Source: Dehalococcoidia bacterium (GTDB lineage: Bacteria; Chloroflexota; Dehalococcoidia; Lucifugimonadales; UBA1123). From it: a stretch of DNA of 64,000 bases. The notes below the pieces were generated by a model that saw only the letters and a program-made list of their open reading frames with translations, searched no databases and had not been told where the DNA came from. Of the stretch, positions 1 to 4,446 are shown one piece after another (the first letter of the stretch is position 1; each line of letters begins with the position of its first letter). The stretch spans positions 318,424-382,423 of the forward strand of contig OY761144.1 of NCBI GenBank assembly GCA_963664365.1, read 5' to 3'. A program made the position numbers and the translations under genes.

Positions 1-495
1 TTGCAGCATGAGAGCTATCAAAGACGCGCGAATCGAAGGGTGAAGGATGGCATGCCCACAGAACGGCGCGGTGGGGCGCCCTCGGGCCTCCGGAGGCTCC
101 GGCCAGACGAGCCGTCAAAGGCCATCACTGGAGCAGCAACCAATGAGTTCCTCCACCCGTCCCTGAACGGCTTTCTGACCATCCGTGAGTGCGCGAGGCT
201 CCAAACTTTCCCAGACGAGTTTGACTTCCTCGGAACCAAGAGTGAACAAGCCTTATTGATAGGCAACGCGGTGCCGCCGCTTCTGGCCGAGGCGTTCGGT
301 CAAACGGCGCTCTCCGACTACCAAGCATCTCTGATAAATGGGTCTCTGACGACAAGAGGCAAACTCCTGAGCTTCAGCCCAACGTTATCTACCGGAATGA
401 GTCCCATTCTGCGTGAGACCGTTCACCAAGTCACGAAGCGATACGGAGTGAGTACTCGTGAGGAGATTGGAACTCAACTAACACTCCATGCTTAG
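1..495 (+). CDS. DNA (cytosine-5) methyltransferase, C-terminal part (5' end outside window)
   Basis: Motif IX/X-like LTIRECARLQTFPDEF...IGNAVPP; overlaps the downstream nuclease-like ORF. Confidence 0.85.
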   Translation: MQHESYQRRANRRVKDGMPTERRGGAPSGLRRLRPDEPSKAITGAATNEFLHPSLNGFLTIRECARLQTFPDEFDFLGTKSEQALLIGNAVPPLLAEAFGQTALSDYQASLINGSLTTRGKLLSFSPTLSTGMSPILRETVHQVTKRYGVSTREEIGTQLTLHA

Positions 496-1504
496 TCAGA
501 ACCAAAAGGCAATCCTTGAACGAGCTCGCGCCCTTGGTGGAGGTAGACAGGGTATAGCCCTCACTGACGACCAGTGCGTAGGGCTCATTGCCGTTGTAGT
601 CCAAGATCTTGGACTCGGTGAGTCATTTCCGGACATTCCACTGCAGACACAGTCATTCTTTGACATTCCTCCCGAATCTTTGGACGTTCCGTCGTTCGAT
701 CTCTTCGAGTTGTTCGAACAACTGCTTAACCTCAACAGAGACGCCGACACCTACTTCCAATGCTTGGCAACCCTCCACAAGAGTCGCCTTAAGTATCAAC
801 GAATCTTATCGACGCAGCCGATTCCTACTCTCGACCAAGTAGGACTAAGAGGCCTTCTCGAATTCGGAATGCTGCCGTCTCCGGAACTCGCCGCGGTGTT
901 GTACTGGAGGAAGTGGATGTATGACATCGACAATCGAGCCGGCCAAGAAACAGGGTATCTCTTTGAACCTATTATTGCGAACGCGATCGGCGGTGTCTCT
1001 GTAAGCGCTCGGCAAAGTCCGATCAGGAGACGTAACCGCCCTAGCCAGGGGAGGCAAGTAGACTGCATTAAGGGTCAGCTAGCGTACGAGATCAAGCTCC
1101 AGGTAACCATTGCCGCCTCAGGCCAAGGAAGGTGGCAGGAAGAGTTGGACTTCCCGAAGGACGCAGTGGAAAGTGGGTTCAGACCGATCCTCATAGTCTT
1201 GGATCCCACACCCAACCCGAAGCTCACTGACTTATCAAACGCATTCGCTGGAGCAGGAGGCGTCGTATATGCAGGTGAGGCAGCTTGGGCACACTTGGAA
1301 GAGGAAGCAGGTGATACGATGGCAAAATTCCTGGAAATTTATGTGCGTTCTCCTTTAGATGACTTGCTCAATTCGGCTCCGGTTGACCTCCCTGACCTCA
1401 CTCTCTCAATGCAGGCTGATGCCGTCGTGTTCAACATTGGTGTCGTTGAGTATTCCGTACCACGGGAACCAACGGCAGACGCAGAAGCTGATCAGTCAGC
1501 ATGA
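488..1504 (+). CDS. Putative Type II restriction endonuclease (PD-(D/E)xK fold)
   Basis: Coupled to the C5-MTase; VDC...YEIK motif resembles a PD-(D/E)xK core. Confidence 0.6.
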   Translation: MLSQNQKAILERARALGGGRQGIALTDDQCVGLIAVVVQDLGLGESFPDIPLQTQSFFDIPPESLDVPSFDLFELFEQLLNLNRDADTYFQCLATLHKSRLKYQRILSTQPIPTLDQVGLRGLLEFGMLPSPELAAVLYWRKWMYDIDNRAGQETGYLFEPIIANAIGGVSVSARQSPIRRRNRPSQGRQVDCIKGQLAYEIKLQVTIAASGQGRWQEELDFPKDAVESGFRPILIVLDPTPNPKLTDLSNAFAGAGGVVYAGEAAWAHLEEEAGDTMAKFLEIYVRSPLDDLLNSAPVDLPDLTLSMQADAVVFNIGVVEYSVPREPTADAEADQSA

Positions 1505-1945: not shown

Positions 1946-2584
1946 CTAGTCCAGCGCCCCCTTTGGCCACGGCGGCTGCGGACTCTTGATCTCGCCGACG
2001 TAGGTGCGTCCGCCGAAGAGCGACACGAAACTCTCGAATACCTCCACGGCCTCGTCCTCCGGCGGGATGAAGGTCTTCATGTACGCGGTGTGGCCGTTCT
2101 CGAACAAGAACGTCGGCGTCCCGAATATCCCCATGTCTCCCGTCGCCTCTTCGTGGTCCGAGGCCACCGCCGCCAGTACCTCCGGGTCGTCCAAGTCATT
2201 CTTGAACCGCTCGACGTCCAGCCCCGCCTCCGCCGCGATCTCTATCAAAGGCTCATCCTTGTTCAGCGGGACCCTGTCTCCGGCGTGCCTCGCGGTCAGC
2301 AGGCCCAGGTGGAAGCGTTGGAACGCCTGCGGGTCGCCTTGGCGCTTGGCCGCCTCTCCCGCCACTGACGCAAGCAGCGCCCGCGCCTCGCGCAGGTCGA
2401 GATCGTCCCACACCTTCCACTCCGGCCCGTTCTTGCTGTTGATCTGCTCCAGCGAGAAGTGCCGCCAGTTGACCTCCAGATTGTCTCCGTACTTGCTCCT
2501 TACCCTATCCAGCCACACGGCTGCATTGTAAACCCAGGGTCAGGCGTAGTCGAACCAAACATCGACCTTCACTTTCTCAGCCAT
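1946..2584 (-). CDS. DsbA/FrnE-like thioredoxin-fold protein, probable selenoprotein (UGA at codon 15)
   Basis: GGAGG RBS, then ATG at 2584; MAEKVKVDVWFDYA(TGA)PWVY is in frame with the tracked ORF; C-terminal GIFGTPTF cis-Pro motif. Confidence 0.85.
2503..2542 (-). promoter_or_regulatory. Candidate bacterial SECIS element
   Basis: 21 nt after UGA an apical loop GUGU closed by CAGCC/GGCUG; a lower CCCU/AGGG pairing is possible. Confidence 0.65.
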
Positions 2585-2728
2585 CTGTGCCTCCCATCAT
2601 GCTGTCTAGCGTTGAGTCCCGGTCAGCCGCATTGTATTCCCGACTGCCGGGCGTGTCAAAACTCTGAGCGTCCTTCAAATCTGCGTCAGTGCGGAGACTT
2701 TCGCTGCCAATGTCGGTAAACTAGGCGC

Positions 2729-3519: not shown

Positions 3520-4446
3520 TTGACCATCAACACGGACGCAGATGTAATCAGGGTCATTCAAGAGAACCCTCGACTCTTGCTGCGCGCGCTAACCGATAAC
3601 GCCGAGCTCTTGGCCGAGGTGCGCCGCGTCGTCCTGACCGACGAGCTACTGGCCATGCCCGGCCAACTGGCCGAGGTCGTCAAGACTCAGAACGAGATGC
3701 TAAAGACTCAGAACGAGATGCAAAAGACCCTGAACGGGGTGCTAAAGACTCAGAACGAGATGCAAAAGACCCTGAACGGGGTGCTAAAGACCCAAGATGA
3801 GATGCAAAAGACCCTGAACGGGGTGCTAAAGACCCAAGACGAGATGCAAAAGACCCTCAACGAGGTGCTAAAGGAGCAAGCCAACGTCCGCAGAGACATC
3901 GGAGCCTTGCATCGGATGTTCAGGCAGCAGCACGATGACTTCAGCAATTTTCGGGGCAACTTCGCGATTTCCGCCGCGAGGCGGAACGACGCGGATATAG
4001 CGCTGCTATTCTCCAAGGCTCACGGCTTCAATCGCCTGGATATGAGAGATTTCACTCGAAGGGATCTCAGCGACTTTCTCACCAGGCATTACGCGAAAGT
4101 AGATGCGTTGCATCTTCGGGAAAGAGCTTGGCGCACGTTCCCAAGGGGAGACATCATAGCCAGAGTCACCGAGCGCATGGGCGACAGTCCGGGCTTCTAT
4201 CTGGCGGTCGAAGCGTCATATACCGGAGACCTCGAGGACGTGCAGCGCGCGACGGACCACGCCAAGATACTGAGATGCGCGGGCGACCTCGACGCCTACG
4301 CGGTCGTCGCCGGAGTCAGGATGAACGACGCCATCGAGGGCAGCCTGTACGAAGACGTCGAAAGTTTCATCAGCGCGCGGGACGAAAACGCCGCGTTCTG
4401 GTTTCCGCTCGATCCGAAGAAGTTGGACCCCGACGAACTATACTAA
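3520..4446 (+). CDS. Coiled-coil heptad-repeat protein with C-terminal PD-(D/E)xK-like domain
   Basis: Repeats KTQNEMQ/KTLNGVL; C-terminal GDII...YLAVEASY; TGGTATAAT extended -10 upstream. Confidence 0.6.
   Translation: MTINTDADVIRVIQENPRLLLRALTDNAELLAEVRRVVLTDELLAMPGQLAEVVKTQNEMLKTQNEMQKTLNGVLKTQNEMQKTLNGVLKTQDEMQKTLNGVLKTQDEMQKTLNEVLKEQANVRRDIGALHRMFRQQHDDFSNFRGNFAISAARRNDADIALLFSKAHGFNRLDMRDFTRRDLSDFLTRHYAKVDALHLRERAWRTFPRGDIIARVTERMGDSPGFYLAVEASYTGDLEDVQRATDHAKILRCAGDLDAYAVVAGVRMNDAIEGSLYEDVESFISARDENAAFWFPLDPKKLDPDELY
3682..3873 (+). repeat. Intragenic tandem repeat, 21-bp unit with 42-bp higher-order period
   Basis: Alternating AAGACTCAGAACGAGATGCAA / AAGACCCTGAACGGGGTGCTA, about 9 units. 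Confidence 0.9.

Follow-up and report, generated by a model that had tools for sequence, protein, structure and literature searches.

DsbA-like proteins with selenocysteine (Sec, U) at the active site have been known from 2005-2006, when UxxC forms were described (PMC1088965, PMC1794560, PMC9312934, as far as the consulted parts of these papers show). A different type was reported from ocean DNA by Zhang and Gladyshev in 2008, whose GOS survey, in the sections consulted, lists a family 'DsbA 3' (pfam01323) with the motif UxxV, 5 Sec sequences and 72 Cys homologs (PMC2398784). In Table 1 of a 2026 review, a 'DsbA-like protein form 2' (PF01323, motif DxxUP, MDP6049977.1) is given as predicted only (PMC13188914, table and adjoining text). 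Two Cys-containing proteins are also pertinent, namely, I) DR2335 of Deinococcus radiodurans (PDB 7DK9; C24S mutant 7DKA), to which the consulted passages of a 2022 review ascribe a predicted cytoplasmic location, a single conserved Cys and no reported function (PMC8945050); and II) Rv2466c (mycoredoxin-2) of Mycobacterium tuberculosis, which, according to the consulted part of its description, acts on S-mycothiolated proteins by a monothiol route and also reduces small nitro compounds (PMC6178380). In the literature searched, no function was found for DR2335, no paper joined SAR202 with selenoproteins, and nothing on 'DsbA 3' or 'UxxV' was found beyond the papers cited here.

This study followed up a gene in a 64,000-nucleotide stretch of Dehalococcoidia DNA (the window), which belongs to a genome of one 3.40-Mb contig that is 96% complete (G000). 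On the minus strand, a frame of 212 codons runs from an ATG at 2584 to a TAG at 1948-1946, and its sole break is a TGA at codon 15 (Table 1). The translation reads MAEKVKVDVWFDYA-TGA(2542-2540)-PWVYNAAVWL, with 197 further codons after PWVY up to the TAG. The ribosome-binding site, the ATG and the in-frame TGA followed by PWVY, which a first-pass annotation had noticed in the letters of this DNA, read as claimed; its name for the active site, UxxY, was off by one. The residue at +3 is Val18 (Tyr19 being at +4), and the motif is therefore UxxV (DYA-U-PWV), which places the gene in 'DsbA 3 (UxxV)'. The earlier statement that a resolving Cys is absent was correct, as the full-length translation contains zero Cys residues. 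GGAG-type sites precede the equivalent ATG in most relatives. A promoter-pattern scan returned 2 sites against 0.2 expected, and the TTGACA-17-TACAAT match suggests a candidate promoter of the gene's own.

Table 1. Features of the predicted selenoprotein locus (window positions) and positions of further candidate genes in the same genome (G000:C1).
Feature	Position	Strand	Remark
Coding sequence, 212 aa with TGA as Sec	1946..2584	-	DsbA-like thioredoxin fold (PF01323)
In-frame TGA, codon 15, putative Sec	2540..2542	-	D-Y-A-U-P-W-V (DxxUP / UxxV), directly before helix 1
Shine-Dalgarno-like GGGAGG	2590..2595	-	5 nt upstream of ATG 2584
Sigma-70-like promoter match TTGACA-17-TACAAT	2631..2659	-	11/12; consensus match only
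Bacterial SECIS-type hairpin	2507..2526	-	Folding energy, synonymous-site constraint, stem retention in orthologs
GTG within SECIS loop	2516..2518	-	False start of gene callers; 190-aa product without active site
G-T-P-T loop, residues 155-158	2111..2122	-	G155, P157 and T158 invariant in 23/23 aligned rows
C-terminal PQPPW, residues 202-206	1967..1981	-	Clade marker; invariant in 23/23 rows; pLDDT 54-62
Ten further candidate selenoprotein genes (G000:C1)	1832314, 412884, 1517075, 1486460, 2506954, 1244175, 1563467, 2841018, 3345013, 1668109	-, +, +, +, -, -, +, -, +, -

The gene shares with the GOS 'DsbA 3' family the Pfam family PF01323, the motif UxxV and conserved blocks throughout, as judged from the sequences consulted in that paper (PMC2398784). 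Counted by eye over residues 5-59 without gaps, 33 of 55 positions are identical to JCVI_READ_1091141065421, and blocks of the GTPTF and C-terminal ELKRPQPP types are common to both. From these similarities the gene is assigned to 'DsbA 3 (UxxV)', i.e., to a selenoprotein family already predicted in 2008. The GOS entries are anonymous reads, whereas the present gene is whole, lies in a single-contig Dehalococcoidia genome with full Sec machinery, and has a measured SECIS constraint; there is no difference in kind, and the anonymous metagenome family is hereby linked to whole genomes. The 'DsbA-like protein form 2' likewise combines PF01323 with D-x-x-U-P (here D12-Y-A-U15-P16) and one Sec, and by motif and Pfam description it is likely identical with the clade of this gene, although DxxUP also fits the UxxC DsbA-like forms (PMC13188914, table and adjoining text). 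The 'DsbA-like form 1' (UxxC; Sargasso 2005, GOS 'DsbA 1') and FrnE also have the DSBA fold, and their nucleophile, in the same column, is likewise Sec or Cys, but they keep a resolving Cys where this protein has no Cys at all. UxxC-type second DsbA-like TGA genes were observed in two related genomes, G037 and G032 (L049:1529-2128 (+) and L050:1064-1687 (-)); in the tree, they form a separate long branch with support 100/100.

Conservation of the TGA was assessed in relatives of increasing distance. A match was present in 36 of 41 genomes searched, G000 included, and the 35 orthologs from relatives have TGA (34) or TGT (1) at the codon-15 column. A scan of GTDB confirmed at least 463 relatives among 600 stretches; the best 80, from loci titled Dehalococcoidia, SAR202 or Chloroflexota, were kept, with 77 TGA, 3 TGT, and Val at +3 in 80/80. 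The pooled set of 95 distinct orthologs (its GTDB part being the best 80 of at least 463) contains 91 TGA and 4 TGT. Val occupies +3 in 34 of the 35 relatives as well, the exception being the G034 ortholog (L043:1477-2106 (-)), which reads U-P-W-C and has a possible resolving Cys. TGC or TGT in close relatives had been named beforehand as the sign of a sequencing error or recent nonsense mutation; what was found instead was TGA in all 22 same-genus genomes with a match and in the above 77 of the best 80 GTDB loci (of at least 463).

If the TGA were a true stop (from sequencing error or in a pseudogene), or if the real start were the GTG at 2518, the product would have no active site, and an ORF of that kind (1946..2518) does exist and is called so by databases. 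Against this stand the retention of TGA in the 91 genes (GTDB part as above) with protein identities as low as about 45%, the equally conserved 14 codons before the TGA together with a ribosome-binding site ahead of the ATG, the replacement of TGA at the DNA level by TGT or TGC alone (seen in L046, L098, L099, L109 and L158-L160), and the constrained hairpin described below. We regard the true-stop reading as already refuted by this conservation and give it next to no probability; it is very likely, from the same comparison, that the UGA at the nucleophile position is decoded as Sec. Contigs of three runs (X1-X3) are identical to the window over 2528-2700; this agreement was not taken as support, because it extends only 12 letters beyond the TGA and the runs are possibly the source sample. 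In RNA run X11, matches came only from relatives less than 95% alike.

Standard annotation conceals the active site. Database homologs (P0002 and most matches) are 185-195 aa long, and 113 of the 120 listed begin downstream of the UGA, typically at the hairpin-loop GTG, which bears out the earlier expectation that standard pipelines truncate the protein. No NCBIfam model scored over its cut-off for the target protein, and the JGI name for homologs is 'predicted DsbA family dithiol-disulfide isomerase'. The significance is thus mainly one of annotation: with 113 of 120 listed homologs lacking the active site, function prediction misses a conserved redox selenoprotein in a group of Chloroflexota that is abundant in marine and host-associated settings. 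Residues 'C' and 'W' shown at the codon-15 column of database proteins were not counted as real; the 'W' forms correspond to TGA genes (L091, L094), in which the TGA has likely been translated as Trp, and part of the 'C' may stand for U.

selA or selB was found in 13/13 tested TGA-carrying genomes from outside the genus, and the two genomes in which no selA was found (G190 and G039; 97% and 85% complete) have Cys codons; selA is also present in six genomes with a Cys codon. Those Cys-codon orthologs in selA-containing genomes (L046, L098, L099, L109, L158, L160) form natural Sec/Cys pairs, which offer material for testing what Sec adds. Across the phylum, a match at 1e-20 was obtained in 23 of 201 genomes; Sec forms occur beyond the order in G222 and G134, and the distant forms examined were CxxV or CxxA. 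A tree of 31 rows (22 of 53 loci, missed by the motif pattern, were left out) requires 4-5 Sec/Cys changes, and no direction of change is claimed because 13 of its 28 inner branches are open.

The CAGCC-GUGU-GGCUG hairpin is present as previously described, its loop starting 21 nt 3' of the UGA. Its upper stem has 5 bp (CAGCC 2523-2519 / GGCUG 2514-2510) closed by the GUGU loop at 2518-2515, and 2 extra pairs lie below a 1x1 loop; the folding energy is -9.8 kcal/mol for 2527-2506 and -6.8 when only the 14 nt of the upper hairpin are considered. In the section consulted, the published model of bacterial SECIS elements requires a 3-9 nt loop, a 4-16 bp stem, a spacing of 16-37 nt, G in the first two loop positions and an MFE of at most -7.5 (PMC13188914), and the hairpin fits it with its 4-nt loop, 5+2 bp, 21 nt and -9.8 kcal/mol. 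The energy was nevertheless dropped as evidence, since it does not exceed chance (z-scores +0.65 to -0.92) and loose G-loop hairpins trail 45,841 of the 100,997 TGA triplets (45%) in this genome of 60.5% GC. A comparative test was therefore needed.

At the four degenerate positions that build the hairpin, a single codon accounts for 94-97% of the 34 orthologs with TGA, and none of 53 comparable degenerate sites elsewhere in the gene is as fixed (mean 56%). When each family is represented by a single genome, the hairpin codons remain 83-100% fixed, and other sites reach this level in 0 of 38 cases; no P value is attached to this synonymous constraint, as the orthologs are kin and not independent. 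All 5 stem pairs are kept in 85 of the 91 TGA genes and 4 pairs in the other 6, and the full stem occurs in none of the 4 TGT genes (in both sets, the GTDB part is the best 80 of at least 463), these controls being few, AT-rich and, for three of them, close kin. The changes seen in the stem are one-sided G-U only (8 cells), with no two-sided compensatory change; as the stem lies within the conserved AAVWL helix, its structure is deduced from codon fixation. It is conservation, rather than energy, that lifts the hairpin above chance.

The Sec machinery, whose absence the first-pass annotation had named as grounds for giving up the Sec reading, is complete in G000, with all four genes over curated cut-offs: selC (tRNA-Sec, UCA anticodon; 66.2 bits, cut-off 47), selA (521.8 bits, cut-off 267.9), selB (305.1 bits, cut-off 242.25) and selD (385.3 bits, cut-off 125). 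selB lies at G000:C1:391006-392856 (+), about 8.6 kb past the right end of the window, and the selD frame itself contains a TGA, accompanied by a GGA-loop hairpin of 8 bp. A motif-plus-hairpin scan of the genome gave 1,412 candidates and was swamped by noise, so that it was replaced by a scan for coding-like sequence flanking a TGA on both sides, in which the target gene ranked 6th of 97 candidates. Sixteen other candidates were fetched, and nine of them show a redox family across or beside the TGA: a thioredoxin-NHL protein, two AhpC/TSA-like proteins, a rhodanese, two Rdx proteins, DUF3179, UGSC and an ArsC-like protein. Each of the nine has a G-containing loop 16-25 nt 3' of the TGA; the thioredoxin-NHL candidate reads CUxxC and the two AhpC/TSA-like ones are lipoprotein-like. 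Of the other seven, L140, L142, L145 and L146 were dropped because the TGA looks like an ordinary stop, located ahead of a gene or between two genes; L141, L143 and L144 were dropped for having no family match. Including SelD, at least 10 further candidate selenoprotein genes are present (Table 1), the TGA of each being followed at 16-27 nt by a G-loop hairpin, and by these predictions G000 is a selenoprotein-rich genome.

The protein matches Pfam DSBA (PF01323) with E 8e-19 and 68.6 bits (cut-off 25.6). An AlphaFold2 model with Cys at residue 15 (pLDDT 92, pTM 0.88) has strand 1 from residue 5 and helix 1 from residue 16, so that residue 15 falls at the thioredoxin nucleophile site; the same early strand leaves no room for a signal peptide, and an N-terminal export signal is accordingly absent from the modelled protein. 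Pro157, in the loop listed in Table 1, is presumably the cis-proline of the thioredoxin fold, its cis state being assumed from the fold. The top solved relative by both sequence and fold is DR2335 (7DK9; E 1e-13 over residues 7-204; Z 23.3, rmsd 2.0 over 192 residues, TM about 0.8). DR2335 resembles the target in its single redox residue at the same column, the absence of a resolving Cys and its predicted cytoplasmic location, but has Cys instead of Sec and about 30% identity. Cys thus stands at the UGA column both in DR2335 and in the natural TGT/TGC orthologs, and the alignment of homologs that had been proposed as a check agrees with the UGA occupying the position of a nucleophilic Cys.

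The kinship with DsbA and FrnE drawn by the first-pass annotation holds for the DSBA fold and the nucleophile column but not for the nearest relatives, which are one-Cys, DR2335-like proteins and not CxxC FrnE. Rv2466c comes second by fold (Z 17.5-18.1), followed at Z 15-17 by kappa GST, YjbH, HCCA isomerase and FrnE. A search of 1.84 billion proteins yielded 150 representatives, 52 of which bear the motif: 20 CxxV, 19 CxxA, 8 CxxT/S, 3 CxxC and 2 WxxV. With CxxC in just 3 of 52, the single-residue site is a trait of the wider family and no result of Sec. Rv2466c shares the DsbA-like fold, but has an added dithiol route via a second Cys where the target has no Cys; its Pfam model (PF22234) gives 17.2 bits on the target, under the cut-off of 27, and some Cys homologs pass it.

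The Pfam DSBA match and the JGI name might suggest that the protein oxidizes or isomerizes disulfides of exported proteins in the manner of DsbA, and the Thr ahead of the Pro157 loop presumably recalls DsbC/DsbG. Such a role is very improbable for a protein whose modelled first strand precludes a signal peptide, which has no CxxC, and to which periplasmic DsbAs are related at Z 14-15.7 only. Judged on sequence and fold, the protein would work like a monothiol redoxin, but it falls outside the groups of Rv2466c, FrnE and the periplasmic DsbAs.

With neither another Cys nor a signal peptide, the protein is predicted to work, likely in the cytoplasm, as a mono-selenol reductase that a small thiol would recycle. 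The overall reading, UGA as Sec in a predicted cytoplasmic single-selenol thiol-disulfide reductase, is given a probability of roughly 0.6. In the proposed sequence of events, SelB-Sec-tRNA would almost certainly bind the GUGU hairpin and insert Sec15, and Sec15, at the start of helix 1 and beside the Pro157 loop, would with high probability be the catalytic nucleophile. The probable next step would be an attack of Sec15 on a disulfide, likely a mixed one between a protein and a small thiol, yielding an Se-S intermediate. By analogy with the monothiol route of Rv2466c, a free small thiol may release this intermediate, because there is no resolving Cys to do so.

Sec also suits the chemistry of a peroxidase or oxidant sink. 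A one-Sec enzyme of that kind, recycled by a thiol or thioredoxin, would agree with the single redox residue without a resolving Cys, and several thioredoxin-fold selenoprotein candidates in the genome could recycle the selenol; we nonetheless consider it improbable, as no peroxiredoxin or GPx family match was obtained in Pfam or NCBIfam, the PxxxTxxU motif is absent and the nearest folds are disulfide reductases. Kappa GST and HCCA isomerase use Ser at the nucleophile position. Their appearance among the top folds (Z 15.5-16.8 and 16.1-16.2), together with the small nitro compounds reduced by Rv2466c (PMC6178380, part consulted), raises the question of a thiol-cofactor-dependent enzyme acting on small molecules, in the manner of kappa-class GST, HCCA isomerase or the Rv2466c nitroreductase. 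This is as improbable as the peroxidase: both folds have 16-23% identity and stand far behind DR2335 in the ranking, the family has Sec or Cys only at the position of that Ser, and the gene is single-copy and located beside rnc and glnA, not catabolic genes.

For the favored single-selenol reductase, leads to the thiol partner point to a mycothiol-like thiol or CoA. Neither gshB nor bshC was found in G000, and the bshC search did recover the gene in Deinococcus, its positive control. Genes resembling mshA, mshB and mshD lie within 4.3 kb in G000 and all score below the mycothiol cut-offs (mshA-like, 395 bits against 462.5; 131 as BshA). The cluster, consisting of a PIG-L deacetylase, an mshD-like GNAT and an mshA-like glycosyltransferase (G000:C1:1110357-1114976; L155:6358-10977), is a possible mycothiol-like thiol pathway in Chloroflexota. 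No clear mshC was found in G000, as both matches score higher as CysRS, and one of them is a CysRS joined to a glycosyltransferase-like domain. Besides an ordinary 451-aa CysRS, the genome encodes a second cysteine-tRNA ligase with a C-terminal glycosyltransferase-like domain (L150:2184-4385 (+), at G000:C1 about 2188183-2190384; 413 bits, over the cysS cut-off), and this fusion might supply the otherwise lacking cysteine-ligase step towards a sugar-thiol. Of the 22 genomes searched, 19 have an mshA-like gene, but its occurrence does not track that of the selenoprotein gene: an mshA-like gene was present in G016, G027 and G030, all without a selenoprotein-gene match, and was not found in G038, G040 and G190, all with one.

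The lead to CoA comes from one-Cys homologs fused behind dephospho-CoA kinase (CoaE), which make up 3 of the 150 representative clusters (P0129, P0133, P0186; multi-member). Their mutual likeness is 38-49%, and a single event may lie behind all three. coaE was adjacent to the selenoprotein gene in 0 of 142 loci, and a search for longer fused forms gave 4 weak matches and missed the CoaE fusions. The lack of gshB and bshC hits, the 19/22 mshA-like genes and the 3/150 CoaE fusions are hints that the near-universal Dehalococcoidia/SAR202 selenoprotein is the dedicated 'redoxin' of an undescribed small-thiol system (mycothiol-like via the mshA/B/D-like genes, or CoA), a proposal that we hold as doubtful. 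With CoA as the thiol, the protein would be a de-CoAlating enzyme; should the partner prove to be CoA, or else a new thiol of the mycothiol type, the redox chemistry of this Chloroflexota group would become accessible.

No redox partner was found among the gene neighbors. An ORF cluster containing RNase III lies 3' of the gene in 51 of 81 loci, glnA and amtB are often divergent, and the neighbors across loci are housekeeping genes. In the window, the gene (63% GC) instead has a YgjP-like gene on one side and, on the other, a DNA methylase paired with a possible nuclease. The pair, at 1-1504 (+) (54% GC), consists of a C5 DNA methylase C-terminus (PF00145) and, overlapping it, an ORF of 338 aa whose match to an ApaLI-like nuclease is weak (E 0.026, under the cut-off); it is a possible restriction-modification pair. 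Further along, at 3520-4446 (+), a 308-aa ORF has a tandem 14-residue coiled-coil-like repeat and weak Pfam matches only.
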